A DNA stretch of 64,000 nucleotides from Candidatus Latescibacterota bacterium. GTDB lineage: Bacteria > Latescibacterota > UBA2968. A program made the position numbers and the translations under genes. The DNA is taken from the NCBI GenBank assembly GCA_965204375.1, contig OZ241986.1, positions 1,696,001 to 1,760,000 on the forward strand, read 5' to 3'. How positions within the stretch are numbered: position 1 is the stretch's first letter; each line of letters starts with the position of its first letter. Below the pieces are notes generated by a model. The model made no database searches, was not told the origin of the DNA, and saw only the letters and a list, made by a program, of their open reading frames with translations. Below are positions 3,111 through 19,478 of the stretch, piece by piece.

Positions 3111-3143
3111 GCGGTTGGGCTGGTTGATCCAACCGCTAAATTT
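3111..3143 (+). terminator. Putative hairpin/terminator after fdhD
   Basis: GCGGTTGG-loop-CCAACCGC followed by a short T run. Confidence 0.45.
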
Positions 3144-3214: not shown

Positions 3215-4108
3215 ATGGTCATTCGCATTTCAAATCTGACAAAAGTATATCGCCGTGGCGCGGTTCCCGCCTTAGACGATGTCACATTGACCATTCCGCA
3301 CGGAACATTTGGTCTGCTGGGCCCCAATGGTGCAGGCAAGACAACGCTGATTAAAATTTTATCGACTCAGATGGACGCATCGAGCGGCAGTGTGACCATG
3401 GATGAGTTCGACCTCGTAAAAGACCGCACTGAAATTCGCCGGCGCCTGGGATATTTACCCCAACATTTTGGGACGTATCCGCAACTGACTGCCTGGGAAT
3501 TTCTCGATTATATGGCTGTTTTAGGCGGCATGCATAATAGAAGTTCGCGTTTGAATCGCGTGGAACAAGCTCTAAACGAAGTCGGATTGTACGAAGCGCG
3601 CAATCGGCGCTCGGGCACGTTTTCAGGTGGCATGATGCGCCGCCTTGGCATTGCACAGACCATTTTGACCAATCCAGAATTTCTCATTGTCGATGAACCC
3701 ACCGTAGGACTTGACCCGGAAGAGCGCATACGGTTTCGGGGTATTTTGGGACGCTTGAGCAGCGATCGCGCAATTTTGATTTCCACGCATATTGTGGGCG
3801 ATATTTCGAGCACCTGCGAAGATCTCGCGGTCCTGGATACCGGACGGCTGATCTTTCGCGGTTCTCCCGGAGAACTCATTTCCAAAGCCGATGGCAAAAC
3901 GTGGGAAGTACAGGTCGATGACGCTGGCTTTGAAATGCTGTCGCGCGTGTTTCGCGTAGTCACAGTAAATGTTGAAGGCGATCTGATGCGTCTGCGTATG
4001 GTGGGCGATGGCGAGCCTCCCGCTGATGCCGAAGCAGTCGCGCCCAATCTCGAAGATGCCTATGTCTATTTTGTCGGAGGCGATACCACAGGCGAAATCG
4101 CCGCGTAA
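3215..4108 (+). CDS. ABC transporter ATP-binding protein (ABC-2/type V exporter class)
   Basis: Walker A GPNGAGKT, signature FSGGM, Walker B LIVDEPT, H-loop STH. Start placed at ATG 3215 after GAGGGA. Confidence 0.92.
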   Translation: MVIRISNLTKVYRRGAVPALDDVTLTIPHGTFGLLGPNGAGKTTLIKILSTQMDASSGSVTMDEFDLVKDRTEIRRRLGYLPQHFGTYPQLTAWEFLDYMAVLGGMHNRSSRLNRVEQALNEVGLYEARNRRSGTFSGGMMRRLGIAQTILTNPEFLIVDEPTVGLDPEERIRFRGILGRLSSDRAILISTHIVGDISSTCEDLAVLDTGRLIFRGSPGELISKADGKTWEVQVDDAGFEMLSRVFRVVTVNVEGDLMRLRMVGDGEPPADAEAVAPNLEDAYVYFVGGDTTGEIAA

Positions 4109-4120
4109 AGGATTAATGCC

Positions 4121-7100
4121 ATGTTATCTATTTGTTACAATGTATGGGGCGTTGCGCGTTATGAGCGCAAAATGCTCTTGAGAACCACAAAATTCCGTAT
4201 TTTGGGCGGCCTGGGGATGAGCATTCCCGTTTTGCTCGGTATCGGCTTTGCCATAGCAGAAGCCAACGGTGCTGAACTGCCCGTGGGAATTGATTCTTAT
4301 GTTCCATTTTTAGTGTACAGTTTCTTGCAGACCATTGTCATAGCATTTATTGTAGGGGATTTTAGAGCGGCGGATGAACAGGCGCATATTTACGAAGTCG
4401 TGGCCGGGCGGCCCATTTCCACTGCAGAACTGGTTGCGGGTAAGTATCTGGGCATTGTTAGTGCGCTTGTCTTTTTGAGCCTGGGCGTTCTGCTTTTAAC
4501 CCTGAGTATCCAGGCTGCAAAAATCAGCATGACGGGTAATCCATTTACAATAAAACCCTATATCAGCTACCTCGTGCTCATGAACCTGCCCGCCCTGATT
4601 TTTATGTCTTCTGTGACATTTTTTCTGGGGGCAGTGTTGCGACGGCAAGCTGCAGTTGCCCTGATTGTGATCGGGTACTTGTTGGCCGTCTTGTTATTCC
4701 TGGGCAGGCGATATGACGGCATCTACGACTTTGGTGCTTTTTTTACGCCTCTGTATTATTCCGATCTGATTGGTCTGGCAGATATTACGCAAGTGGGGCT
4801 AAAACGCCTGTTTTACATCTTGCTCGGCATTGGATTTTTTGGGTTTTCAATTGATTGGTATCCCCGCCTTGCGCATTCCATAGTCGCGCGGTGGTTTGGT
4901 CGCGGCTGCGCGTTGACCGGTTTTGGTCTGGCTGTGGGCCTTTACTTCTATATGGGTGCAGAGGCACAAGAAGGGAAAGCGTATCGCCAGTCTCTGCTCG
5001 AGCAACAGGAAGCGGTTGCGAATATTCCCGTCGCGGAAATAACCCATTACGATCTGGCATTGACGCTTTTGGGAGAGGAACCGCTTGCTGCCTCTGGCAC
5101 GATTAGATTGAAAAATTCCAACGAAGTCCCGCTCGATACGCTGATCCTTTCGCTCAATCCCGGATTAAAAATCCAGAGCCTGACGCGCGGCGATGGCGGC
5201 ACAATAGCGTGGGAGCGGATGGGAAGCGTGATCCGCGTTGTGCCTACTAACCCCCTGCAATCGGAGCGAGAACTCGATCTGACATTGGCTTATGCGGGTG
5301 ATATTAACACGGAAGGTTTTGACCTCAAACGGGAAAAAGCCAGACCGAAGTTACGCAAACGCGAAGGGCCATTTGGAATATTTAATAAAGGCTCTCTGAC
5401 GGCGTGGATTCGCGACAATTCCATCTTCTTGCCTCCGCGCAGCCGATGGTATCCGGTAACGGGCGTTGATTACGGCTATGAAGATACGCGCGCGGTTTCC
5501 TTTTCAACGGCAAATTTACAAATAACATACCCGCAAGGCATTGAAGTCATTACTCAGGGGCAGGTCGGCAAGACCGATACACTCGACACACAGATAACGC
5601 GCCAATGGACTGTTGAAAAACCCGTGCCTGTCCTATCGCTGAATGCGGGCGAATACCGCGTTTACCGCGCGATCATTCACGACGTCGAATGCGCCCTTTA
5701 CGCCCATCCATCACATCTGCGTCCAGTCCGATTTTTTGAAGGTGCCGAAGAAGAGATTTTGCGCGCACTCGGGCAAATTATGGACGCAATGGAACAGGAA
5801 TCGGGCATGAAATATCCCTATGCCAGTCTTTCTCTGGTGGAAATCCCCTTCCATGTTCAATGGTATTACGAAGGCTGGGAAGAAAAGGGCGGTTTGACGC
5901 AGCCCGGTGTGTTAATGATAGAAGAAGATGTGTTCATGAGGCAGCAATTCACCCGCGATTTCAAGCGCTATCAGGAGCGCTCGCGCGGCAACCGTGAACC
6001 CAAAGATATTAAAAAGGATCTTTTGGTACGCGCGGTTTTTTCGACCTTCTTTTCCAGAGAGGGAAATTCGGGCAGACAGGGACAACCAGGCGGATTGTTT
6101 CGCAGCCCAGTTGTTCAACTCTGGGCTTATGACAAGCAGTTTGTGGGCGACCACCATGCCTTGCTCAAAAAGGGCATGCCCCTGTATCTCCAGAATGATT
6201 TGAGCACCGATATGACCTCTGCGTTTTATTCGAGCCAACGACGCGGTGGCGGGCGTGGTGGACCCGGAGGGCGCGATGGTCCCGGAGGACGCGGTGGACC
6301 CGGAGGGCGCGGCAGGACAGCTGGTGGTGGGGCTGCCTGGGATACGTTGATCGCGAAAATGCAACGCAAGTCATTTGCCGATTTAAATCCCGAAACGCAA
6401 GCCGGCCTCTATCGCCAGGTTCTCGACGCCAAGGGACCCGCACTTTTTCAAATGATGGAATCTTTTTTGGGTGAGGAAACATTTCGCACGGTCTTAGACG
6501 ACATAGACCACAATCACAAATACGAAAACATCGATTTTTCCACCTTTGAACGCGCTGCTGTGGGCGATACCACAGAAAGTGACGAGAGCCAAAAATTGCA
6601 GCGCCTCGTCAACGACTGGATTTTCAGTACAGAAATCCCGGGCTATACCCTTACAAGGGTAAAAGCACTGAAGATGGACGACGGCTTTGGGATGGTGGTC
6701 TATCAATTGATTCTGCGGATAAAGAATAGCGAACCGGGCCGGGGATATGTGCAAATTACAGCTACGGGCCGGGGCGATGAAGCCCTAAAAGGCGTAGAGA
6801 TTGAAGGTGGACAGGAAATTGAAGTCTCGATGGTTTTGTGGGAGCAACCATTCAGGGTGATGGTCGAACCCTTTTTTGCGCGCAATCGGCGACCTCTTAT
6901 GTCCCCCGTGCGCGTCCCCGAAGATGTCACAGAGGGCTTTCCCGTTGCTTATGTCAAAGACGTGACGGGCGAAGAGTCCGGTCCTGTTGAGATTATTGTA
7001 GATAATGACGACGACGGATTCTCAATGCCCGTGCGACGCGCAACGCGCTACTTCCGCCCGGGACTCAAAGGCGGCAACTGGCGCGAGCAGGGCTCGCCAA

Positions 7101-7606
7101 TGGCCTTTGGGCGATTTGAGACAAATTTTCGAATGAAACATCCGGGCGATGGGGCACAGCCGGCTGTGTGGACAGCGCAAATCCCCAAAGACGGCGAGTA
7201 CGATGTGAGCTTCTTTTTTCCCGATCCCTCAATGGCCAGGCGCATGCGCGTCGGATCGAATTTTATACTCACTATTTTTCACAGCGGCAAAGCCGATACC
7301 CTCGAAATGGAGCGCGACCAGATGAAAGCGGGATGGAATTATCTGGGGCGATACAAATTTGCCGAGGGCGAAGAAGCCGTAGTCGAATTGTCCGACCGAG
7401 CAGAAGGGCGTGGGCGCCTGTATGCCGATGCTGTACGATGGCGCTTTTTTGACCCGGAAAACCCCGATGCCTACGAAGATGAAATGCCCACCTTTATGTT
7501 TCGCGGTCGAGGTGGACCAGGTGGCGGGCCTGGGGGGCGCGGCGGCGGGGATGGTAGGCGAGGTTCCGGTGGTGGCAGAGGTGGCGGCGGGTTGTTGGGC
7601 TTTTAA
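4121..7606 (+). CDS. ABC-2 permease fused to an M1-aminopeptidase-like ectodomain and a C-terminal Golvesin/xanthan-lyase-like beta domain
   Basis: N-terminal multi-TM region with RPISTAELVAGKYLG. M1-like ITHYDL..., YPY..LSLVE, KG..LFQM...LGEETF. C-terminal IIVDNDD...AVWT..IP..GEYDV...GWNYLG.Y.F...YADAVRW. Confidence 0.75.
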   Translation: MLSICYNVWGVARYERKMLLRTTKFRILGGLGMSIPVLLGIGFAIAEANGAELPVGIDSYVPFLVYSFLQTIVIAFIVGDFRAADEQAHIYEVVAGRPISTAELVAGKYLGIVSALVFLSLGVLLLTLSIQAAKISMTGNPFTIKPYISYLVLMNLPALIFMSSVTFFLGAVLRRQAAVALIVIGYLLAVLLFLGRRYDGIYDFGAFFTPLYYSDLIGLADITQVGLKRLFYILLGIGFFGFSIDWYPRLAHSIVARWFGRGCALTGFGLAVGLYFYMGAEAQEGKAYRQSLLEQQEAVANIPVAEITHYDLALTLLGEEPLAASGTIRLKNSNEVPLDTLILSLNPGLKIQSLTRGDGGTIAWERMGSVIRVVPTNPLQSERELDLTLAYAGDINTEGFDLKREKARPKLRKREGPFGIFNKGSLTAWIRDNSIFLPPRSRWYPVTGVDYGYEDTRAVSFSTANLQITYPQGIEVITQGQVGKTDTLDTQITRQWTVEKPVPVLSLNAGEYRVYRAIIHDVECALYAHPSHLRPVRFFEGAEEEILRALGQIMDAMEQESGMKYPYASLSLVEIPFHVQWYYEGWEEKGGLTQPGVLMIEEDVFMRQQFTRDFKRYQERSRGNREPKDIKKDLLVRAVFSTFFSREGNSGRQGQPGGLFRSPVVQLWAYDKQFVGDHHALLKKGMPLYLQNDLSTDMTSAFYSSQRRGGGRGGPGGRDGPGGRGGPGGRGRTAGGGAAWDTLIAKMQRKSFADLNPETQAGLYRQVLDAKGPALFQMMESFLGEETFRTVLDDIDHNHKYENIDFSTFERAAVGDTTESDESQKLQRLVNDWIFSTEIPGYTLTRVKALKMDDGFGMVVYQLILRIKNSEPGRGYVQITATGRGDEALKGVEIEGGQEIEVSMVLWEQPFRVMVEPFFARNRRPLMSPVRVPEDVTEGFPVAYVKDVTGEESGPVEIIVDNDDDGFSMPVRRATRYFRPGLKGGNWREQGSPMAFGRFETNFRMKHPGDGAQPAVWTAQIPKDGEYDVSFFFPDPSMARRMRVGSNFILTIFHSGKADTLEMERDQMKAGWNYLGRYKFAEGEEAVVELSDRAEGRGRLYADAVRWRFFDPENPDAYEDEMPTFMFRGRGGPGGGPGGRGGGDGRRGSGGGRGGGGLLGF
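6257..6310 (+). repeat. 3 x 18-bp in-frame tandem repeat encoding GGPGGR/DGPGGR
   Basis: GGTGGACCCGGAGGGCGC / GATGGTCCCGGAGGACGC / GGTGGACCCGGAGGGCGC. Confidence 0.85.
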
Positions 7607-7618
7607 TTTAACGGAGGA

Positions 7619-8692
7619 ATGGACGTGAAGTTTGATTTTTGCTCAAAATTTCTGTTGGTAATTGTCCTTTGTGGGATAGTCGCCTGTGATCAACAGGCGG
7701 AACAGCGCACCGTTGACCTGACGGTTCCCGTTACTGTTCAATCCGTAGAGACGGGAACAATCGAATCTATAGTGACAGCTACCGGAACACTCAGACCCGT
7801 GCGCGAAGCCCAGATCACGACGGAGATTCGGGGAAATCTGTACTGGAGCAAAGGGAGTAATAACCGCTTGCTCGCCAAGGGATCAGAGGTTAGAAGGAGG
7901 CAGACTATAGCCAGGCTCGACAGCGACGAATGGGTTGTTGGCGCACGGGTGGAAGCGCGCAAACTGGCGGTTGAAACAGCCAAGCGAACGCTAAAAGAGC
8001 AGGAAACTCTGTTTAGCCGACAACTGGCAACGGAAATGGACGTTGAAAGTGCGCGTAGAGCCTGGGCCGATGCAGAAGCCAATTATCAGGATGCCCTCAT
8101 CAAGATCGATAAAACCAAACTTTTAGCCCCCATTCAGGGCGTGCTATCGGAACTTGCGGATATTACGCAGGGAACGCTGGTGACTCCAAATACCGCAATC
8201 GCAAAAATTATGGATTATTCACAGGTATTTGTGGATCTGAAAATTCCCAATGCCCAGATTATTAACGTGAAATTGGGCCAAGGCATCCGCGTGAGTAATT
8301 ACGCTTTGCCCGAAGAAGTTTTTGAGGGCGAGATTGTCGAGATGGATCCCGCCATTGATCCGGTCACGCGCACGGTTCAGGTCGTCGGAATGGTCGATAA
8401 TCCCGACTTGTTGTTGCGGGCGGGCATGTTTGTAAAAACGGAAATCGTCACGGAATCGCGGCAAAATGTCGTACTTATTGCGCGCAATCTCGTTTTGCGG
8501 CGCAGAAATCAGAAGGTCGTTTTTATCGAAGAAGAAGGCCGCGCGCAACAACGCGAAGTCGAAACAGGTCTGGAAGACCGCGAGCGCGTGGAAATTGTGG
8601 TCGGCCTTGAACCGGGAGACCAATTGATCACGAGCAATTACGAAACACTGAGGCCGCGCACCCGGGTGCGGGTCACGGGAGATAGCCGATGA
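7619..8692 (+). CDS. RND efflux periplasmic adaptor (membrane fusion protein), probable lipoprotein
   Basis: Hydrophobic signal ending IVAC, then lipoyl/hairpin pattern (LLAPIQG), IDPVTRT, LRAGMF, VETGL...GLEPGD. Confidence 0.92.
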   Translation: MDVKFDFCSKFLLVIVLCGIVACDQQAEQRTVDLTVPVTVQSVETGTIESIVTATGTLRPVREAQITTEIRGNLYWSKGSNNRLLAKGSEVRRRQTIARLDSDEWVVGARVEARKLAVETAKRTLKEQETLFSRQLATEMDVESARRAWADAEANYQDALIKIDKTKLLAPIQGVLSELADITQGTLVTPNTAIAKIMDYSQVFVDLKIPNAQIINVKLGQGIRVSNYALPEEVFEGEIVEMDPAIDPVTRTVQVVGMVDNPDLLLRAGMFVKTEIVTESRQNVVLIARNLVLRRRNQKVVFIEEEGRAQQREVETGLEDRERVEIVVGLEPGDQLITSNYETLRPRTRVRVTGDSR

Positions 8693-11600
8693 ATTTGCCG
8701 GAATTTTCAACGCGATATCCCGTGACAATTGCCATGGCGACCCTCGCGGTGGTATTGCTTGGATGGATATCGCTAGACGGTCTGGGCACCGATCTCTTGC
8801 CCGATTTGCAGACGCCTGTCGTCACCATAGACCTGGCAGCACCGGGCAAATCGCCTGTCGAGATCGAAGAAAGCTATACGCGCCGCCTCGAGCGCGACGT
8901 GAGCACGATTAATGGTGTCAAGCGCGTGTATTCGATTACCCGCTCGGGACAAGCCGTAGTCATTGCGGAATTTGCCTGGGATGCGGACATGGATTACGGG
9001 TTGCTCGACGTACAAAAAAGAGTGGGTCGCTATGCGGCGAATGAAGATGTGTCGCAGTTGGATGTGACACGAGAAGACCCGCTCGCACTCGCAGTGATGC
9101 GCATTGCGATTACAGCAGACGAAAACACGGAACTCGACGCACTGATGGGCACGGTAGAATTGCTGATCAAGCCCAAATTGGAGGCCCTCGAAGGCGTGGC
9201 GTCTGCTGAAGTGGAAGGGGGAGCAGAAAAGGAAGTGCGCGTTTCGCTCGACCCCTATTTGCTCGAAGCGTTTGGGCTTTCACCCGATGCGGTCATCAAT
9301 CGCATCGCACAGGCAAATGCCGATGTATCCGGAGGTACGCTCAGAGAAAATCAGCAGTCGTATCTGGTCAAAGCCCTCGGTCGCTTAAATGACATAAACG
9401 ATGTGCGGGAAGTCATCGTGGGAGAAAAGCGCGGGGGAGGAGGCACGGTTTCTGGAGATCGCGTGCCGGTGCGCGTGCGCGACGTGGGCACGGTTGATCT
9501 GGAATATCAAGAGCGAGAAACCATTGTACGCCTCAATGGACGGGAATGCGTTGGCCTCGCCATTTACAAAGAAGCCGGCAGCAATACAGTCGCCGTGGTC
9601 AATACGGTATTGGATGCGATAGACGATATCGAAGCAGATCTGAGCGGCATGCGGTTTACAACCGTCGAAAATCAGGCGCGATTTGTCGAAGACGCCATAG
9701 GTGAAGTCGAAACATCTGCCATTCATGGGGCAATTTTGGCAATTTTCGTGCTTTTGATCGCGTTGCGAAGTTGGACGGTGACGCTGGTGATTGCGTTGGC
9801 GATTCCCATTTCCGTATTGGCGACGTTCTCGCTCATGTACTTTGAAGGGCTGTCCCTGAATATTATGACGCTGGGCGGATTGGCCCTGGGCGCGGGCATG
9901 CTCGTTGACAATGCCATTGTGGTCATTGAAAACATTTATCGCCATCTCGAAAGTGGCGAGGATGCGCGCACAGCATCGAGTCGCGGAGCCTCTGAAGTCG
10001 GCGTGGCAATTCTGGCCTCAACGCTGACGACCGTGGCTGTTTTTTTGCCCATTGTCTATTTGCAGGGGCTGGCGGGCAAACTCTTTGTGGATCAGGCGTG
10101 GACAGTAGCATTTTCGCTGCTGTCATCACTGGTTGTGGCAATGACGACGATTCCGATGCTGACGTCGCGTATTTTCAGGCGGCTGAATACCACGCGTCAC
10201 ACGACCATTCGGTCGGACAAATACTATCGGTTTCTCAATGGTGTTTTGAACCGCAAACTCATCATGCTCGGCGTCGTGCTGCTCATTCTGGGTGGGACGG
10301 GATATATCGCCCGCGAGTTGCAGACCGAATTTATCCCACGCGAAGATCAGGGGCTGTTTCAAATTGACCTCACATTGTCCGAAGGCTCGCGTGTGGAACT
10401 GAGCGATCAGGTCGCCCTGCACGCCAAGGAGATTGTCGAAAGCGTTGGCGGAAGCGATGTGGCACATGTGTACGCACTGGTCGGCCTCAATCCCGCTCTG
10501 GTATCGAGCGGAGGCGAACCAACGGGTCCCAATCGCGCGACCCTATCGGTGGCTTTGCACACACAGCGGTCGCGCAGCGTCAGCGAGTTGGTGCGCGATC
10601 TGGATCCCATTTTGAGTGCCATGCCCGATATCGAGGTGAAATACAAGTTACACGAAACCGCGCTCGAAGGCGTGATGGGAGGGCAAGAAGCGCCCATTCA
10701 GGTCGAAGTGTCTGGGGAAAATCTCGATATTTTGGCACGCATCACAAAAGAGCTTCAGACGAGGATCGAGGATCTGCCTTCGGTGTACAATGTGCGCACG
10801 AGTTTTCAAGGCGGACAGCCAGAAATCGATCTGGCGATTCGCGATGAAGTGGCATCGGCTTTTGGACTGACTACCCAGACCATCAGCCGCACATTGGAAA
10901 GACAACTGTCGGGTGAAGTTGCCGGCGAATTGTCAAAAGACCAGCGCACGAGGGATATCCGCGTGAAATATCGAGATATGGACCTGCGCGAACTCCACAC
11001 CATGCAAATCGAAGGATCAGATGGCGCGATCCTGACATTGGGGGATATTGCCGAACTCAATATTATTGAAGGTCCCCGCGAAATTTTGAGAGAAAATCAG
11101 CAGCGCGTGGGGCGCATTACGGGCTATCTCACAGAAGGGCGCATTTTAAGTGAAGCCATTGCCGACGTACGCGCCATCATGCAGGAAATGGTTGTGCCGT
11201 CCGGGTATCGCGTTGAAATTGGCGGGGAAGAGCGCGAACGCGCGGCGTCATTTGAAAGTCTCAAATTCGCACTCCTGCTTTCAATTGTTCTGGTCTATAT
11301 GGTTATGGCATCGCTGTTTGAATCCACGCTCCATCCGTTCACCGTCATGTTTTCCGTTCCCTTAGCTGGCGTCGGCGTAATATTTGGATTCTATCTTTTG
11401 GGCGAACCGCTCAGTGTAATGGCCTATATCGGCATTATTATGCTGGGTGGTATTGCGGTCAACGATGCGATTGTGCTCGTGGATCGCATCAACCAGCTCC
11501 GGCAAGCTGGCTTGACGCTGCGAGAAGCAATTCTCCAGGGTGGTCAAGACCGCTTGCGCCCCATTATGATGACGAGTGCGACGACCATTCTCGCTCTGCT

Positions 11601-11754
11601 GCCCATGGCACTCGGCTTTGGCGAGGGGGCAAAATTGCGCGCGCCTATGGCGATTGCCGTCATTGCCGGATTGGTGACATCGACATTGATGACCTTACTC
11701 GTGATACCCACCATGTATGAACTAATTGATCGACTTCGGGGGAAATCCGCGTGA
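8689..11754 (+). CDS. RND efflux permease, AcrB/AcrD/AcrF family
   Basis: 1021 aa. GMLVDNAIVVIENI in TM4, SLFES..HP, RLRPIMMT, PMAIAVIAGL. ATGA overlap with the MFP gene. Confidence 0.95.
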   Translation: MNLPEFSTRYPVTIAMATLAVVLLGWISLDGLGTDLLPDLQTPVVTIDLAAPGKSPVEIEESYTRRLERDVSTINGVKRVYSITRSGQAVVIAEFAWDADMDYGLLDVQKRVGRYAANEDVSQLDVTREDPLALAVMRIAITADENTELDALMGTVELLIKPKLEALEGVASAEVEGGAEKEVRVSLDPYLLEAFGLSPDAVINRIAQANADVSGGTLRENQQSYLVKALGRLNDINDVREVIVGEKRGGGGTVSGDRVPVRVRDVGTVDLEYQERETIVRLNGRECVGLAIYKEAGSNTVAVVNTVLDAIDDIEADLSGMRFTTVENQARFVEDAIGEVETSAIHGAILAIFVLLIALRSWTVTLVIALAIPISVLATFSLMYFEGLSLNIMTLGGLALGAGMLVDNAIVVIENIYRHLESGEDARTASSRGASEVGVAILASTLTTVAVFLPIVYLQGLAGKLFVDQAWTVAFSLLSSLVVAMTTIPMLTSRIFRRLNTTRHTTIRSDKYYRFLNGVLNRKLIMLGVVLLILGGTGYIARELQTEFIPREDQGLFQIDLTLSEGSRVELSDQVALHAKEIVESVGGSDVAHVYALVGLNPALVSSGGEPTGPNRATLSVALHTQRSRSVSELVRDLDPILSAMPDIEVKYKLHETALEGVMGGQEAPIQVEVSGENLDILARITKELQTRIEDLPSVYNVRTSFQGGQPEIDLAIRDEVASAFGLTTQTISRTLERQLSGEVAGELSKDQRTRDIRVKYRDMDLRELHTMQIEGSDGAILTLGDIAELNIIEGPREILRENQQRVGRITGYLTEGRILSEAIADVRAIMQEMVVPSGYRVEIGGEERERAASFESLKFALLLSIVLVYMVMASLFESTLHPFTVMFSVPLAGVGVIFGFYLLGEPLSVMAYIGIIMLGGIAVNDAIVLVDRINQLRQAGLTLREAILQGGQDRLRPIMMTSATTILALLPMALGFGEGAKLRAPMAIAVIAGLVTSTLMTLLVIPTMYELIDRLRGKSA

Positions 11755-14700
11755 CACTTGCTGGTATTGCCGTTCGGCGGCCCGTGACCACGGCCATGTT
11801 TTTTCTTGGTCTGGCTATTTTAGGCGCGATTTCACTGGATCGGTTGCCCGTTCAGATATTTCCCGAACTCGTTCGCCCGGAAGTCTTTATCACAGTTACT
11901 CAGCAGGGCTACTCGCCCGAGCAGGTCGAGCGGGAATTGGTGATGCCCGTCGAGGGAGAAGTAGGCAAACTTGAAGGCATTGAGGCGTATGAGTCCTTTT
12001 CTCGTCAGAACAATGGCCAGATACGCATTTCTTACGCGCCCAATACGGATATGAAATTCGCTCTGTTGCAGCTCGAGAGCCGCATCACGCGCCTGCAATC
12101 GCTTTTGCCCGAAAGAACGCGGGTCAACATACAGCGCTTTGATTCCTCTGATCTGAGTGCCTCGGTGATGCAAATCCACGTGCTGGGCGAAGGCGATATA
12201 AACTGGCTACGCGAATTTGCCGAGGAGAAAATCAGGCCAGAATTGGAAGCGGTCGATGGCGTTGTCAACGCGCAGGTCCTGGGCGGGCAAAGGACAGCTA
12301 TTGAAATTATTGTCGATCCATTGATGCTGCAGGCGCACCAGCTTGCGATGTCTGATGTTCGCAATCGCATCAATGCTTTTAATACGCGGCGGCAATATCT
12401 CGGGCGGGTGTACGACGGCGACCAGGCTTATGCGGTCAGCATTCAGGGGCAATTTACAGACCTCGTGCAAATCCGCAGAGTCGTTATCAAACCCGAATTG
12501 CCCCTGCATCTGGGCGACATTGCCCAAATTCGCTACGGCCTTCAGGAGCGTACAGATCTGCAGCGCATCAATGGCAAACCCGCCGTTGGCATTCGCATTC
12601 AAAAAGACGATGAAGCCAATCTCATCGAACTTGCAGGAGAACTCGAAGACACCATCGAACGCGTCAACCGCGATCTCGCCTATGAAAATATCCAGCTCGT
12701 GATCAGCCAGAATCTGGCAGAGATTATGAACGAAGCCCTCAATACCCTCAAACTGGCCGCTGTTGTCGGGGGATTGCTCGGGCTTTTTGTTTTGTTCTTG
12801 TTTTTGAGAAATCTGCGTTTTGTCGCTGTTTTGCTCCTCGCCATTCCGTGTTCTTTGCTGCTCACATTCAATCTGATGTATATGTGGGATCTCAGTTTGA
12901 ATGTGCTCTCGCTGTGTGGCCTCGCGCTTGCAATTGGTATGTTGATGGACAACAGCATCGTGGTCATGGAAAATATCTTCAAGCATTTTGAACAGGGTAA
13001 ATCCCCCAAAGAAGCCGCAAAAGCCGGAACCGATGAGGTTGCACGCGCCGTTGTTGCGGCTACAGCGACTACGATTACGGTTTTTTTGCCCGTTGTTTTT
13101 ATTCAAAGCGATTTTCAGGATATCCTGCGGGAACTCGCGTTGTCCATGGTATTTCCGCTGCTTGCCTCTCTCCTTGTCGCGCTCACACTCGTGCCTGCCC
13201 TCGCATCGAAAACCCTTTCTCTCACATCTCGACCACCGACGGAAACAGGCGTATTGATCGAGATGTACACCGTATGTCTCAAAGCGGGCTTGCGCCATAG
13301 AATCAGCGTGTCACTGGGCATTGCCGGCGCGCTTGTCGTCACGCTGATCATTTCTTTTTTCTTTATGCTACAACAGGATATCCGCCAGGAAGAAAGCCGT
13401 TTTACCGTCTATATCAGCATGCCTGAAGGCACGACTATTGAAGCCCTCGATGCTGTTGTTGGCGAAATTGAAAGTGCTGTGCGAGATCTCAAAGGTATAG
13501 ATCGCTTTACGACCAGTATCAGCGAAACCCAGGCGAGTATCAATGTGGAGCTTTTGCCCTTAGCCGAACGCCCCGACCAGATTTCTGTCGATCTCATCAA
13601 GGAGAATCTCGAAGAGTCATTCGGTGATGTCCAAAATGCAATTGTGAGTTATGAGGCCATCGCGCGTACGGGTAGGGGAGGTGGTGGTGGCCGAGGCGGT
13701 GGGGGAGGCGGCGGTATTCGAGGCACCCGCCAGGCATCTGGTGGATTCAATCTGGAAGGGGGCACCCCTTCGGAAATGGCTGTAATTCGCGGCTATGATT
13801 TCACGGTGCTTCAAATGCTTGCCGACGATCTGGTCTATCGCCTCGAAGAATTGGAGGAACTCGATCCCAATAGCGTGCAGGCCGATGCAGAACGCGGCGC
13901 ATCTGAAGTGCATGTTTTGCCCGATGAAGAAGTGATGTTTGATCGGCGATTGCAGGTTCGCCAGGTGCTCAATGCAGTATCCGACGCCAATCCGCGCGGT
14001 GCGCGGTCCAATATCGCATTTCTCACACCCGAAGGTGTGGAAATCCCGATTGATATTCGCAATGTTGAAGATCCCGAAGAAGAAGGGGAAGGCATTGCGG
14101 GCTTGAGACAGACGCCGATTCTGGGTACGGGGGGGACGTACATTCCCCTTGTGGAAGTTTCGCATGTGCGCCGGGATCAGGGCAGGAGCATGATTTTGCG
14201 CACCAATCAATCGCGGCGCGTAATTGTGTCCTATCGCTTCGCCGACGAAATTTTGCAATCTCAGCCTCTGCTGGAAGCCTCCCGCGATTATGTGCAAGCT
14301 GTGGTCTCTGAAATGGTACTTCCCGAAGGGTATAGTATCGAAATGATCGAGGCAGAGGAAGAGACGATTTATTACTGGATGCTCGGCATTGCTGCACTGC
14401 TCATTTTTATGATTTTGGCCTCTTTGTTTGAATCGCTTTCTGCGCCTTTGATTATTCTGTGTACGTTGCCCACGGCAATTATTGGATCGTGCTGGGCCCT
14501 GGTCTTATCGGGTACGGGATTGACCCAACAAGAAGGCCCAATGGCACTGTTGGGATTTATTGTTTTGCTCGGTATTGCCGTCAACAATGGGATCGTGCTG
14601 ATCGATGCGATTGGAACCCTTCGCAATCGCCGCGGATTCAGGCGAGAACGCGCGGTGCTCGCGGCGAGTCGGTCGCGTGTGCGCCCCATTTTAATGACTT

Positions 14701-16478
14701 CAGCGACCACCATTTTGGGCGTTTTGCCTCTGGCACTCACGTTTGGCGGCGATTACGAAATTTGGCCGCCCTTTGCGATTACGGTGCTGGGGGGAATGGC
14801 GGTTTCAATGGTATCTACCCTCGTATTTATACCCGTGATGTACATGGGAATTGACCAGATCAAAGCCTGGTTGGCGGATATTGGCTGGTTCGGGATCGTA
14901 TTGGGGACGGCAGCCGCTGCGGGATTGACGTATTGGGTTGACGATTATTACCAGAGTTTGTTCTGGACCTGTCTTTTGGCATTGCCGGCGTGGATGTTGT
15001 GTATGAGCGTGGTCTGGATTGTGCAACGCATTTATCGCGCGCGTATGGCTTCTCTTGCTGAGATCGGGAATATTGAATATCTCGAAATTCGCAATCTGAC
15101 AAAAATTTACGGCGCGCCGGGGCGGTTTAAGCACGAATGGGATCGCTTCAAGCGCCGCAATCAGCGCCTTTTAGAGCGCGGACAGGTATTGGTAGATAAA
15201 AAGGCGATTCGAGATAGTTTGTGGTGGAAGTTACCACTTGTGGTACTTTTGATCTATTTAGAAACCTATTTTGAACAGGGATCCTGGATCTTTTTGACGG
15301 GGCTTGCTATATGGGGTCTTATACATCACCTTGTGCTTTGCGCGGCAGCTTTGCGCGATTTTCAGATTGAGAACAGATGGATATCACAAATCGCCCAATT
15401 GATTTTGCCGCTGGTCTTTGTCGCCTTTATCCATTGGCGTTTGGAACTTATATCTTTGACTATAGCCACTTCTGCAATCTACTTTCTCTATCGCATCATC
15501 GGATTTTTGGCAAATCGCGTCGCACGAGGTCGCGTTGATCCCGAACATATACCGGGAAAGTTGGGCCCTGTAAAAGGCATTGTGTACCGCGGTGCTGCAG
15601 CCGTTCCCCTGATTGGCGTTCCCCGTCCGCAATTTCAGGCTCTCGGCGGTGTGAGTCTCGATATACCACGCGGCATGTTTGGCCTTCTGGGTCCCAATGG
15701 CGCGGGCAAGACCACGCTGATGCGAATTGTCTGTCGGGTTTTGTCGTCAAATTACGGATCTGTGCTCGCCAATGGCAAAATACCGCTTACACATCGGAAT
15801 ATGCAGGGGGTGATTGGATATTTGCCGCAGCACTTTGGCCTGTATCTTCACATGTCTGCGTATAATTATCTGGAATACCGCGCGCTTTTGGAGGGATTTA
15901 AGGACGGGGTGGCACGGCGCAATCGCGTACAGGAATGTCTGGAGCAGGTCAATCTGTGGGATAGGCGCGACGATCCGATCGGTTCATTCTCCGGCGGTAT
16001 GAAACAGCGTGTGGGTATTGCACAAACTCTGTTGCACTTGCCGCAAATTATTGTGGTGGATGAACCGACAGCGGGATTGGATCCACTCGAGCGAATCCGG
16101 TTCAGAAATTTGCTGGCGCGATTTAGCCAGGAAAAGATCATTATTTTTTCCACGCATATTGTGGAAGATATTTCGGGCAGTTGCAACCAATTGGCCGTGC
16201 TGAATCACGGTAAGCTGCTTTATACGGGAACCCCGATTGAGATGCGCGATTTGGCGCGCGATAAGGTGTGGGACGCCCTGCTACCAGATCAGCGCTTTGA
16301 AGCGTTAGAACGCGATCTGGATATGATTACGCATGTGCGCGTACCCGATGGGATTCGAGTGCGATTTCTCGCCACTGATCCCATCCCAGAAGCATGTCCA
16401 GTTACGCCCACCCTCGAAGATGCGTACCTCTACCTTTTGCGACATGGCGATGAATACAAACAGTCTAACATGGCGTGA
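11751..16478 (+). CDS. RND permease fused to an extra membrane domain and a C-terminal ABC ATPase
   Basis: About 1035 aa of AcrB-type sequence (MDNSIVVMENI, RVRPILMT), then hydrophobic helices, then GPNGAGKTT / FSGGMKQR / VVDEPT / STH in one 1575-aa frame. Confidence 0.88.
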   Translation: MTLAGIAVRRPVTTAMFFLGLAILGAISLDRLPVQIFPELVRPEVFITVTQQGYSPEQVERELVMPVEGEVGKLEGIEAYESFSRQNNGQIRISYAPNTDMKFALLQLESRITRLQSLLPERTRVNIQRFDSSDLSASVMQIHVLGEGDINWLREFAEEKIRPELEAVDGVVNAQVLGGQRTAIEIIVDPLMLQAHQLAMSDVRNRINAFNTRRQYLGRVYDGDQAYAVSIQGQFTDLVQIRRVVIKPELPLHLGDIAQIRYGLQERTDLQRINGKPAVGIRIQKDDEANLIELAGELEDTIERVNRDLAYENIQLVISQNLAEIMNEALNTLKLAAVVGGLLGLFVLFLFLRNLRFVAVLLLAIPCSLLLTFNLMYMWDLSLNVLSLCGLALAIGMLMDNSIVVMENIFKHFEQGKSPKEAAKAGTDEVARAVVAATATTITVFLPVVFIQSDFQDILRELALSMVFPLLASLLVALTLVPALASKTLSLTSRPPTETGVLIEMYTVCLKAGLRHRISVSLGIAGALVVTLIISFFFMLQQDIRQEESRFTVYISMPEGTTIEALDAVVGEIESAVRDLKGIDRFTTSISETQASINVELLPLAERPDQISVDLIKENLEESFGDVQNAIVSYEAIARTGRGGGGGRGGGGGGGIRGTRQASGGFNLEGGTPSEMAVIRGYDFTVLQMLADDLVYRLEELEELDPNSVQADAERGASEVHVLPDEEVMFDRRLQVRQVLNAVSDANPRGARSNIAFLTPEGVEIPIDIRNVEDPEEEGEGIAGLRQTPILGTGGTYIPLVEVSHVRRDQGRSMILRTNQSRRVIVSYRFADEILQSQPLLEASRDYVQAVVSEMVLPEGYSIEMIEAEEETIYYWMLGIAALLIFMILASLFESLSAPLIILCTLPTAIIGSCWALVLSGTGLTQQEGPMALLGFIVLLGIAVNNGIVLIDAIGTLRNRRGFRRERAVLAASRSRVRPILMTSATTILGVLPLALTFGGDYEIWPPFAITVLGGMAVSMVSTLVFIPVMYMGIDQIKAWLADIGWFGIVLGTAAAAGLTYWVDDYYQSLFWTCLLALPAWMLCMSVVWIVQRIYRARMASLAEIGNIEYLEIRNLTKIYGAPGRFKHEWDRFKRRNQRLLERGQVLVDKKAIRDSLWWKLPLVVLLIYLETYFEQGSWIFLTGLAIWGLIHHLVLCAAALRDFQIENRWISQIAQLILPLVFVAFIHWRLELISLTIATSAIYFLYRIIGFLANRVARGRVDPEHIPGKLGPVKGIVYRGAAAVPLIGVPRPQFQALGGVSLDIPRGMFGLLGPNGAGKTTLMRIVCRVLSSNYGSVLANGKIPLTHRNMQGVIGYLPQHFGLYLHMSAYNYLEYRALLEGFKDGVARRNRVQECLEQVNLWDRRDDPIGSFSGGMKQRVGIAQTLLHLPQIIVVDEPTAGLDPLERIRFRNLLARFSQEKIIIFSTHIVEDISGSCNQLAVLNHGKLLYTGTPIEMRDLARDKVWDALLPDQRFEALERDLDMITHVRVPDGIRVRFLATDPIPEACPVTPTLEDAYLYLLRHGDEYKQSNMA

Positions 16479-17178
16479 GTTGCTCTTTTTCGTCGGAAAG
16501 ATGCACAGCCTGAGCATGAGAATCGTTTTTCACCGCAAAATGATTTTTATGTTCGGCGGAATTGTGGCGTATTACGCAATTTTGTACGCAATTGCAATCT
16601 GGCGTCCAGGCGAGGGGTTTTCAGTTGAGCAAGCCCTCCATGTATTGGTCGAAGTGCCGGGGACAGTGCTTGCAATTTATATGACGATGGATCTGGTGTC
16701 GGGGGAGAGGGATAAGGATACGCTTGAGATTTTGTTCAGCACGGCGATCAGCCACTATGCGACGTGGTCTGTGAGAATTGTGTCGATCAGCGCTGCACTA
16801 TTTGCCACGCTGATGGCAATGAGCACGATTTCCTACTATTTTTTCGCGGAGTTCCCCTATGTCCTGGGGGGATTGAATGCCTGTATTCCCGCCTTTTTTA
16901 TGGTGGGAGCCACATTTTTGTTTTCTGTTTTGTGTCGCAGTGGGAATGCGGCAGGTATGCTCGCTGTTGGGCTTTTGATTGCGATTTTGCTTTCTACCGA
17001 GACGTTTGAAGATACATCGTATTACCTTTTTCTCAAGCCATTTGATCCGCCTTCAGATTTAGATACCAGCCTGTGGGTAAATCGCGTAGTCTTAAACCGC
17101 ACGGGCATTGCCATTCTCGGTATATTGTTCATTTTTCTGGCTCTGAGACGAATGATAGAGCGCGAAAAGCTACTGTGA
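16450..17178 (+). CDS. ABC-2 type permease subunit
   Basis: About 6 TM helices and the ERDKDTLEILFS motif. Start is ATG 16444 or 16450, overlapping the end of the RND-ABC gene. Confidence 0.8.
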   Translation: MNTNSLTWRELLFFVGKMHSLSMRIVFHRKMIFMFGGIVAYYAILYAIAIWRPGEGFSVEQALHVLVEVPGTVLAIYMTMDLVSGERDKDTLEILFSTAISHYATWSVRIVSISAALFATLMAMSTISYYFFAEFPYVLGGLNACIPAFFMVGATFLFSVLCRSGNAAGMLAVGLLIAILLSTETFEDTSYYLFLKPFDPPSDLDTSLWVNRVVLNRTGIAILGILFIFLALRRMIEREKLL

Positions 17179-17314: not shown

Positions 17315-17836
17315 ATGAATAAAAATGTCGCCTATTCCGAGACCTCATGGCCGTTCATCCTTCCTGCGATTTTACTGTATTTGGCTATTGCTATAATAGT
17401 CGTTTATTTTAAGGGACTGGAATTTAGAACTTATTTGGCTATCGCTATTATATTTGTAGGAAGTTGCTATATGTTTCTGCTTTACTGGCGTTACGCAATT
17501 CAGATAGACGATACAACAATCTCGTTTGGTTATCACTTTACCGGAAAAGAAAAAGTTTTATTGAATACAATTGAGTATGCTGAGATTCTCATCTTTGATC
17601 GAAAAAATCCTACCACACGCTTCGGCATTAATAGATTGGGAGGGCCTCCTGTTCGGTTGACGGGGAGGTTGATCAGGTTGAGATTGAATGAAGAATACCT
17701 TACCCGGTATAAACTCAAGCGAAAAAAGAAGGTGAAACAATTAGTACTTGTATCGAGAAAGCCCGAATCGGTTTTGTCCGTGCTATCAGAAAAAGGCGTT
17801 CCAGTGCAACGGATGCAACGGCAAAGAACTGAATAA
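17315..17836 (+). CDS. Hypothetical membrane protein (2 TM plus basic soluble domain), AT-rich
   Basis: 173-aa ORF with two N-terminal hydrophobic segments. Visibly lower GC than its neighbours. Confidence 0.6.
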   Translation: MNKNVAYSETSWPFILPAILLYLAIAIIVVYFKGLEFRTYLAIAIIFVGSCYMFLLYWRYAIQIDDTTISFGYHFTGKEKVLLNTIEYAEILIFDRKNPTTRFGINRLGGPPVRLTGRLIRLRLNEEYLTRYKLKRKKKVKQLVLVSRKPESVLSVLSEKGVPVQRMQRQRTE

Positions 17837-18851: not shown

Positions 18852-19478
18852 TCATTTTACCGGTGTTTGTGGCTGTTGGTCTCCCACATCCGCGTGTGCA
18901 AGTCCAAGAGCGCGTTGATATAACAGATCTGACAGCCGTTTATTCTCTTCGCGGAGTTTCTGAATCGTTTCAGCGTTTCTCTGAGCGGTTATTTCCACTT
19001 CTTTTTGTTCTTTACGCAGCCAATTTGCGTCTTGTTCCGCTTGTTTTTCCCTTTCTTTTGCCATATTCAGCTCTTCTCGTGTCTTTTCGAGTTCTTCTTT
19101 TAGGGCACGTGCTTCCGTCCATCCAGAGGCTGATGACGCCTCTAATTGCGCATTGCGTTCGTTAACACTGCGAATTTCCGCTCTCAGCTCCCTTTCAACT
19201 GTTTCGATCGCTGCCAATTTTCCCAATTGCTGTTGTTGAGCTTCAAATTCAGATTTTTCGACGAGAATTTGATCGGGATTGTGGCTTATATCAATCTCAT
19301 TTTCTCTCATTTTTTTTCCATGTTTTTTCCTGAATAATTCCTCAATTTCATCTCTGGATATTCGCCAGGTCCCATTCCATTTTTCAGGCTTTAAAAAACC
19401 TCTATTTATGTAATTTCTTATTGTTTTATCGGTTACTTCGAGAATTTTCGCTGCTTCGCGGATTCCGTAACTTTCCAT
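18852..19478 (-). CDS. Helix-turn-helix (MerR/excisionase-like) DNA-binding protein with a long coiled coil
   Basis: YGIREAAKILEVTDKTIRNYINRGFLKPEKWNGTWRI followed by about 120 aa of E/K/Q/R-rich heptads. Confidence 0.8.
   Translation of the reverse strand: MESYGIREAAKILEVTDKTIRNYINRGFLKPEKWNGTWRISRDEIEELFRKKHGKKMRENEIDISHNPDQILVEKSEFEAQQQQLGKLAAIETVERELRAEIRSVNERNAQLEASSASGWTEARALKEELEKTREELNMAKEREKQAEQDANWLRKEQKEVEITAQRNAETIQKLREENKRLSDLLYQRALGLAHADVGDQQPQTPVK

Follow-up and report, generated by a model that had tools for sequence, protein, structure and literature searches.

A six-gene cassette in the genome of a Candidatus Latescibacterota bacterium joins a tripartite efflux pump of the resistance-nodulation-division (RND) type to a putative type V ATP-binding cassette (ABC) module through a single polypeptide. 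The cassette lies on the forward strand of a 64,000-nucleotide window (GenBank assembly GCA_965204375.1, contig OZ241986.1, positions 1,696,001 to 1,760,000; coordinates below are those of the window). Six tightly packed head-to-tail genes at 3143/3215–17178 encode a soluble ABC ATPase, termed NBD1 after its nucleotide-binding domain (NBD); a large ABC-2-like permease (permease 1); a periplasmic membrane fusion protein (MFP); two paralogous RND proteins, RND-A and RND-B, the second of which continues into another ATPase (NBD2); and a small permease (permease 2). All six were identified with Pfam and NCBIfam, and the inventory of two NBDs, two permeases, two RND proteins and one MFP agrees with that drawn up in an initial annotation of the DNA. 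The RND-ABC fusion is real, widespread and, as far as we searched, undescribed. We give about even odds to the reading that the cassette encodes one physically coupled trans-envelope exporter, in which the ABC-2 module would carry out an inner-membrane step and the RND proteins, the MFP and an outer-membrane factor (OMF) the outward step.

An ABC ATPase split by a membrane insert is fused to RND-B

The 1575-residue product of the fusion gene (11751–16478) carries in one open frame an ACR_tran domain (E = 4.7e-181), the RND portion (residues 1–1039, 11751–14867), followed by an ABC_tran domain at residues 1300–1441 (E = 1.3e-25). A Pfam check of this chain, proposed in the initial annotation, thus returned both domains. 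The annotation described an ATPase fused to RND-B; the fusion stands, but the ATPase is not simply appended, as two extra transmembrane (TM) helices precede it and a four-helix insert lies within it.

We modelled the last 550 residues with AlphaFold2 (AF2), using 38 orthologues (mean predicted local distance difference test score, pLDDT, 78.2; predicted template modelling score, pTM, 0.58; model numbering starts at protein residue 1026). The end of the RND part lies near residue 1040, and the last RND helix runs on into a helical hairpin at about residues 1027–1102 (AF2 helices 2–42 and 45–77). One extra TM helix, the hydrophobic segment 1073–1091, belongs to this hairpin, which returns the chain to the cytoplasm; the continued RND helix and the extra helix (about residues 1040–1102) are encoded at 14868–15056. 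The first β-strand of NBD2 follows at approximately residues 1110–1120 (AF2 strand 85–95, 15078–15110) and has the motif ..NLTK.Y, the same as the opening strand of NBD1. Its K1118 and Y1120 show no variation among 18 family members, nor among 38. The membrane insert (15123–15599) comprises, in order, an amphipathic helix, four TM helices (about residues 1150–1258) and a return helix, modelled as helices 100–117, 125–148, 152–176, 184–206, 209–233 and 247–258. After the insert, the remainder of the ATPase starts at about residue 1295; core and C-terminal domain (residues 1295–1575) occupy 15633–16478, including the stop codon. In this model NBD2 is an ABC ATPase whose first hairpin is replaced by a four-helix membrane insert, and because the extra helices number even, it is predicted to stay cytoplasmic. 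The regulatory insertion of CFTR NBD1, which we take to be located at the same position, presumably marks this site as tolerant of insertions.

The membrane segments appear specific to these proteins. The linker of ~250 residues matches no Pfam family, residues 1036–1295 gave no usable match in the ESM Atlas, and a Foldseek search with the C-terminal model returned matches to the NBD only, leaving the six extra helices with no recognised relative. Against 1.84 billion representative sequences, phmmer found 41 matches to the linker at E ≤ 0.001; the long ones sit at about residues 1030–1290 of ~1570-residue proteins, and the others are short proteins or fragments.

The fusion and its gene set are conserved across phyla

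A cluster search covering 5.8 billion proteins recovered the fusion from sources whose labels include Gemmatimonadota, Latescibacterota, Acidobacteriota, KSB1 and Calditrichota; among the matches listed, 120 of 120 clusters carry ACR_tran together with ABC_tran, most at 1550–1620 aa. Within the order of the source organism, 38 of 41 genomes encode it, with the gene order of the window. Across the phylum it occurs in 82 of 168 genomes and 27 of 49 genera (34 of the 52 high-quality genomes), in one copy each. A scan of species-representative genomes gave 80 loci, 50 with the fusion and 30 with unfused RNDs or an ABC ATPase. The 50 fusion loci, at ~33–37% identity, come from Bacteroidota (Draconibacterium, Mangrovibacterium, Marivirga, Maribellus, Parabacteroides, Bacteroides sp. 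224, Odoribacter, Rikenellaceae and others) and Calditrichaceae; two six-gene loci of Latescibacterota are counted among the 50. Carriers therefore span Latescibacterota, metagenome-assembled genomes (MAGs) labelled Gemmatimonadota, Acidobacteriota, KSB1, Calditrichota and many Bacteroidota, gut Bacteroidales included.

The initial annotation raised the concern that the fused frame might reflect a lost stop or a misassembly; a frameshift is a further conceivable cause. We regard an artefact of any of these kinds as having next to no probability. The same ~1570-residue frame recurs in independent assemblies from several phyla, including the cultured isolates of Marivirga, Draconibacterium, Maribellus and Parabacteroides, and the linker is conserved and specific to these proteins. 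Of the 55 loci at which NBD2 gave a match, 45 keep the frame open over at least 1560 residues, the other ten being cut by contig ends or frameshifted. Nothing supports an artefact; only two genomes of one genus (G002 and G005) show a single TAA within the C-terminal match. The sequence distribution thus indicates that the fusion is real and ancient.

Its neighbours travel with it. The order NBD1, permease 1, OMF, MFP, RND-A, RND-B::NBD2, permease 2 is found at 31 of the 50 fusion loci, and the two Latescibacterota loci have the six-gene form lacking the OMF gene. Fourteen loci end at a contig or flank edge and are collinear up to there; two have no tblastn match to permease 2 and carry in the same place a frame of 236–241 aa with 5–6 hydrophobic segments. 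The remaining locus (L068, 5639–20950), from a MAG classified only as 'bacterium', has all seven parts in a different order: MFP, NBD1, small permease, RND-A, big M1-like permease, RND-B::NBD2 and OMF. Its fusion protein is shorter (1438 aa; linker ~100 aa), and Golvesin_C is missing from its big permease. The ABC and RND genes, whose co-occurrence elsewhere the annotation had left to be checked, accordingly form one cassette across phyla. Since the genes flanking the cassette differ between lineages (ten relatives' loci), it is the cassette that constitutes the conserved unit.

No OEP/TolC gene lies in the window, and seven OEP genes are present elsewhere in the genome. The initial statement that the operon contains no TolC-like gene is correct for this genome and does not extend to the Bacteroidota and Calditrichaceae relatives, which have an OMF gene inside the cassette (in Marivirga sericea, 500 aa; OEP, E = 2e-40). 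As the OMF sits within the cassette there, the machine is probably a tripartite trans-envelope system.

An apparent triple fusion of RND-B, NBD2 and permease 2 at one locus (L066) was ruled out, as a stop codon separates the two genes. Most shorter, unfused matches to the insert plus NBD are fragments on short contigs. Four proteins (P0201, P0203, P0204 and P0207; ~483–531 aa, contigs of ~4–21 kb) comprise the insert and the NBD, about 85% of the query. Among these, the ~483-residue type (P0201, P0203 and P0204-like, on ~19–21 kb contigs) may represent genuine unfused membrane-anchored NBDs.

The RND half

RND-A (8689–11754, 1021 aa) matches ACR_tran at E = 2e-233 over profile positions 3–1020 of 1021. 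L068 apart, it lies directly upstream of RND-B in all loci examined, and the two share 315 identical columns in an alignment of 1092. The genes are tightly joined, with overlaps of 4 nt between MFP and RND-A and 4 nt between RND-A and RND-B. The MFP (7619–8692) is an RND-type periplasmic adaptor (TIGR01730 RND_mfp, 182 bits, cut-off 94.9; HlyD_D23, E = 2.1e-24). With phmmer, RND-B matched the structures of AdeB, MdtB, MexB and AcrB. The best NCBIfam model for both RNDs is NF033617 RND_permease_2, with 624.8 bits for RND-A and 487.6 for RND-B, and neither reaches its cut-off of 1250 bits. MdtC (401.9 bits) and MdtB (373.4 bits) are among the better NCBIfam matches of RND-A, and RND-B scores 271–317 bits with these models; both proteins are far below the MdtB and MdtC equivalog cut-offs (1584 and 1774 bits).

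RND pumps of the AcrB type relay protons through an Asp-Asp pair in TM4 and a Lys in TM10. We read the corresponding positions from alignments to AdeB. In TM4 both proteins have Asp-Asn; in TM10 RND-A has Asn-Asp and RND-B Asn-Asn, so that neither is of the AcrB Asp-Asp/Lys type. We considered an RND-B with a dead proton relay that is driven by ATP instead and dropped the idea, as some unfused RNDs show the same pattern. Because five unfused RNDs among the genome's 15 share the RND-B pattern, it is not a mark of the fusion; the TM10 Lys is found in 0 of the 15, and the TM10 pattern also retrieved many unfused RNDs from other phyla. Nothing indicates that the RND half has lost proton coupling, and we infer that it uses the proton-motive force. 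A Gly/Arg-rich low-complexity tract lies in a periplasmic loop of RND-B (~13662–13751).

The ATPases and permeases of the ABC half

NBD1 (3215–4108 from an ATG, with alternative starts at TTG 3143 and ATG 3200; ABC_tran, E = 3.3e-31) is a soluble ABC-2-type ATPase; distant orthologues align with it only from residues 23–25 on. The initial annotation took the two ATPases for paralogues, and every motif that it listed is present in both copies. NBD1 and NBD2 are 45% identical over 274 residues (BLASTP, E = 2e-77) and are each other's closest paralogues in the genome, identity to other ABC ATPases being at most 39%. Walker A, Q-loop, LSGGQ-type signature, Walker B with its catalytic Glu and H-loop are found in both, and NBD2 has an extra C-terminal domain. 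The nearest NCBIfam models are DrrA (191 bits) and GldA (178.6) for NBD1 and GldA (167.6 bits) and DrrA (152) for NBD2, all far below the cut-offs for membership (GldA 402.6, DrrA 312.45 bits). A Foldseek search with the NBD2 model placed TM_1403, NosF of NosDFY, ABCA7/ABCA4 and LptB nearest, so that by predicted structure NBD2 is closest to type V ATPases.

Permease 1 (4121–7606, 1161 aa) was modelled with 43 orthologues (pLDDT 80.6, pTM 0.75). The initial annotation had given it a large ectodomain, which the model retains and delimits: an N-terminal amphipathic helix and seven TM helices are followed by a C-terminal domain of ~870 residues. As seven TM helices precede this domain, it should lie outside the cytoplasm. 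It comprises an M1-aminopeptidase fold, a β-sandwich, Golvesin_C (Pfam, E = 5.7e-18) and a Gly/Arg-rich tail. The Pfam match to Peptidase_M1 is weak (20.2 bits, below the cut-off of 27.7), as is an NCBIfam match to the GldF permease. By structure, Foldseek aligned the ectodomain with IRAP, ERAP1, ERAP2, tricorn F3 and PepN (E = 1.9e-18 to 1e-15) over ~650–700 columns at 11–13% identity. M1 aminopeptidases are characterised by the HExxH(+E) zinc site and the GxMEN exopeptidase motif; HExxH or GxMEN is found in 0 of the 43 permease 1 orthologues. The ectodomain is therefore best described, from model and sequence, as a putative conserved non-catalytic M1 pseudo-peptidase. In the ESM Atlas, permease 1 lies beside Golvesin_C/ABC2 clusters of Bacteroidota (0.99) and further off from Peptidase_M1/ABC2 clusters (0.87–0.88); its relatives match ABC-2 families with 20.4–25.7 bits, against cut-offs of 27–31.6. 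Gly/Arg-rich tracts are encoded at 6233–6331 (internal) and 7475–7603 (the C-terminal tail, pLDDT <50). Operon copies of permease 1 within the order have the tail; it is absent from a paralogue elsewhere in this genome (L020, below) and from the aligned Bacteroidota orthologues.

Permease 2 (16444–17178, 244 aa) has six hydrophobic segments, no ectodomain and a weak match to ABC2_membrane_2 (20.8 bits, cut-off 27.2); the small permease of L068, at 39.6 bits, is above the cut-off. The likely start is ATG 16444, within a longest open reading frame (ORF) of 16333–17178, and from this start the gene overlaps the end of the fusion gene by ~35 nt. L068 apart, permease 2 follows the fusion gene wherever downstream sequence exists. 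A complex prediction for permease 1 (residues 1–290) with permease 2 scored 0.16 against a mark of 0.32, which gives no verdict either way.

A proposed coupled exporter and the alternatives

We propose, in line with the supercomplex inferred in the initial annotation, that the cassette would act as one envelope-spanning export machine with two energy sources. Its RND half would be a hetero-oligomer of RND-A and RND-B with the adaptor and an OMF, which is encoded elsewhere here and within the operon in Bacteroidota; its ABC half would be a type V (ABC-2) module of NBD1, NBD2, permease 1 and permease 2. The helical hairpin leading from RND-B to NBD2 would tether the ABC module covalently to the pump, and the four helices inserted between the first two β-strands of NBD2 would pin the ATPase to the membrane. 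Assembly beyond this covalent link, stoichiometry and RND energy coupling are likewise matters of inference, as is substrate hand-off: the ATP-driven part would bring an amphipathic substrate to the periplasmic face, extracting or flipping it out of the cytoplasm or the inner leaflet, the dead M1-like/Golvesin ectodomain of permease 1 would hold or guide it, and the RND part would then expel it through adaptor and OMF. More tentatively, we suggest an undescribed class of exporter, in which ATP hydrolysis and the proton-motive force drive one covalently coupled machine. The membrane-embedded NBD2, an outgrowth of an RND subunit, would anchor a type V ABC module to a hetero-oligomeric tripartite RND pump, and inner-membrane substrate would be passed directly to trans-envelope export.

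Several points weigh against a coupled exporter. The proposal is built from the sequences and models of the parts, not of the assembly, and in Pfam neither permease reaches a curated cut-off for the ABC-2 families that it matches. Nothing points to a substrate, the flanking genes in the window and at ten relatives' loci giving no clue. RND pumps take up substrate from the periplasm or outer leaflet unaided, and a dedicated feeder is no known requirement. Permease 1 could presumably work without the pump, given that NBD1'-permease1' pairs stand alone, and in three genomes of one genus (G011, G017 and G019) the operon lacks NBD1, the sole NBD1-type gene lying elsewhere.

These last two points call for detail. 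This genome (G000) and another (G008) have a second NBD1'-permease1' pair with 81–83% and 67–70% identity to NBD1 and permease 1, respectively, and neither RND, NBD2 nor small permease gene lies near it (in G008, at locus L023). The copy in this genome (L020, G000:C1:4428000–4447999, at ~8630–15551; 81% and 67% identity) is preceded by a gene for a radical-SAM protein and followed by one for an 864-residue GT4/GT28-type glycosyltransferase. In G011 and G017 the NBD1-type gene directly follows a gene for a MacB_PCD/FtsX permease of 805–846 aa; a second permease-1-type gene is absent from these two genomes and has an internal TAG in G019. The pattern of the three genomes (loci L016–L019, L021 and L022) looks like reciprocal loss between two paralogous pairs. 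Each of the five genomes checked has as many NBD1-type ATPases as intact permease-1-type genes, and NBD1 seems to serve permease 1, also in trans.

Such observations are also those expected if the operon encoded two or three independent transporters, namely an NBD1/permease 1 homodimer, an NBD2/permease 2 homodimer and an RND pump, which handle related substrates with no hand-off, the fusion only co-localising or stabilising the parts or setting the ratio of NBD2 to pump. The stand-alone pairs and the matching gene numbers fit this arrangement; NBD1 adjoins permease 1, and NBD2 permease 2, at 49 of the 50 fusion loci, as far as the sequence of each extends, and bacterial ABC-2 exporters are usually homodimers. 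However, the complete set is kept from Latescibacterota to Bacteroidota at ~35% identity or less, and it survives the reshuffling in L068, where NBD1 stands by the small permease and the big permease by the fusion gene. A covalent link with six dedicated TM helices would, moreover, be unexpectedly long-lived if it served mere co-expression. We consider independent transporters unlikely.

Whether a coupled machine holds one ABC unit or two is a separate matter, and one NBD1/NBD2 heterodimer and two homodimeric ABC-2 units are equally possible. Two homodimers are an equal contender because of the stand-alone NBD1'-permease1' pair in this genome and G008, and the operons without NBD1 and the matching gene numbers point the same way. 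For one heterodimer speak the constant company of the four ABC parts, the NBDs being closest paralogues, and the swapped adjacency in L068. Arguments from stoichiometry cut both ways: a trimer with RND-A and RND-B at 2:1 would have a single NBD2 to offer, for which NBD1 would have to act as partner, whereas at 1:2 permease 2 would find two copies of NBD2.

The ABC-2 module might instead be no substrate transporter; by analogy with MacB, LolCDE, FtsEX and NosDFY, it might use ATP to do mechanical or chaperone work in the periplasm. ATP would then move the ectodomain of permease 1, which would capture, unfold or load a periplasmic or outer-leaflet peptide or glycan-bearing molecule into the RND proteins, or gate the pump. 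An ~870-residue M1 fold that lacks the catalytic motifs in 43 of 43 orthologues fits a binding role, NBD2 has among its closest solved relatives NosF, whose ABC-2 system NosDFY works for a periplasmic partner, and RND pumps are established to load from the periplasmic side. Permease 2, on the other hand, has no ectodomain to move, and the type V ABC-2 exporters Wzm-Wzt and TarGH do translocate their substrates. We judge a mechanical device unlikely, though the same sequences and models would fit mechanotransmission as well as transport.

The conservation of the cassette, its self-contained composition and the non-catalytic ectodomain suggest a role beyond drug efflux. The cargo of a coupled exporter may be a molecule native to the cell, either secreted or destined for the envelope, for instance a lipid, a glycolipid or a peptide conjugate; the pseudo-peptidase fold, Golvesin_C and the glycosyltransferase gene by the paralogous pair hint weakly and loosely at a peptide- or glycan-bearing amphiphile.

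Relation to known transport systems

The initial annotation knew of no characterised system with this layout, and none emerged from the literature that we searched. The full-text search, whose scope left out subscription journals, supplements and TCDB, returned no description of an RND-ABC fusion or of the cassette, and term look-ups in the first 300,000 characters of a tripartite-pump review (PMC8277102) gave no result. Public annotations of the proteins are generic ('efflux RND transporter permease subunit', 'ATP-binding cassette domain-containing protein' and a double label at JGI).

The cassette resembles the MdtABC-TolC locus in having one adaptor gene followed by two paralogous RND genes; in MdtBC, these assemble as B2C. 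It differs in the six extra TM helices and the ABC ATPase of the second RND, and in having a further ATPase and two ABC-2 permeases encoded alongside. Unfused MFP-RND-RND relatives also exist, for example at loci L069, L070, L074 and L101. With MacAB-TolC the cassette shares an ATPase-bearing component in the inner membrane whose partners across the envelope are an MFP and an OMF. MacB, however, is a type VII protein with FtsX/MacB_PCD domains, and Pfam detected neither in any of the six cassette proteins; the cassette MFP is of the RND type (TIGR01730), and two full RNDs bring ATP- and proton-driven modules together. NosDFY, Wzm-Wzt and TarGH are comparable through the proximity of NBD2 to TM_1403 and NosF and through permeases that both match ABC-2 families weakly, below the cut-offs, and have 6–7 TM helices, but none of these systems is known to be linked to an RND or to have an NBD split by a membrane insert. 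Permease 1 is similar to the uncharacterised database family 'ABC transporter permease/M1 family aminopeptidase', in which an ABC-2-like membrane part precedes an M1-fold ectodomain; neither HExxH nor GxMEN occurs in permease 1 or its 42 aligned orthologues, which carry Golvesin_C.

Single-component inner-membrane exporters are known to cooperate functionally with RND pumps in two-step efflux. There, as proposed here, one transporter delivers the substrate to the periplasmic side and an RND pump moves it onward across the outer membrane, but the known partners are separate and unlinked, whereas those of the cassette are co-inherited and covalently tethered. RND pumps are proton antiporters that lack a nucleotide-binding part, and to our knowledge ABC and RND efflux are regarded as distinct classes whose cooperation is no more than functional. 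If the coupling is functional, such an architecture would have no precedent, and it would be the first physical coupling of the two classes. How inner-membrane and trans-envelope steps are coordinated, how a dimeric ABC engine works on a trimeric RND scaffold and what a dead M1 peptidase does on a transporter are testable questions, for which the cultivable Bacteroidota carriers (Marivirga, Draconibacterium, Maribellus, Parabacteroides and a Bacteroides isolate) make experiments feasible.

Neighbouring genes

A promoter and terminator scan gave counts no higher than in shuffled sequence. The flanks of the cassette in the window are housekeeping genes, with FdhD upstream and a tetratricopeptide repeat (TPR) protein, GcvT, LeuRS, PNPase, IF-2 and NusA downstream. 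An upstream gene at 20–1312 encodes a protein that combines a Lamin Tail Domain with a FlgD Ig-like domain and appears unrelated to the cassette. Immediately downstream, a 173-residue ORF (17315–17836) with two hydrophobic segments and no Pfam or NCBIfam match, in a stretch of low G+C (0.41), gave no tblastn match in two near-identical genomes (loci L024 and L025), in which the TPR gene begins ~100–130 nt after permease 2; the ORF may be a small insertion. Further downstream, on the opposite strand, lies a gene for a MerR/HTH_17-type regulator (18855–19478, reverse strand).

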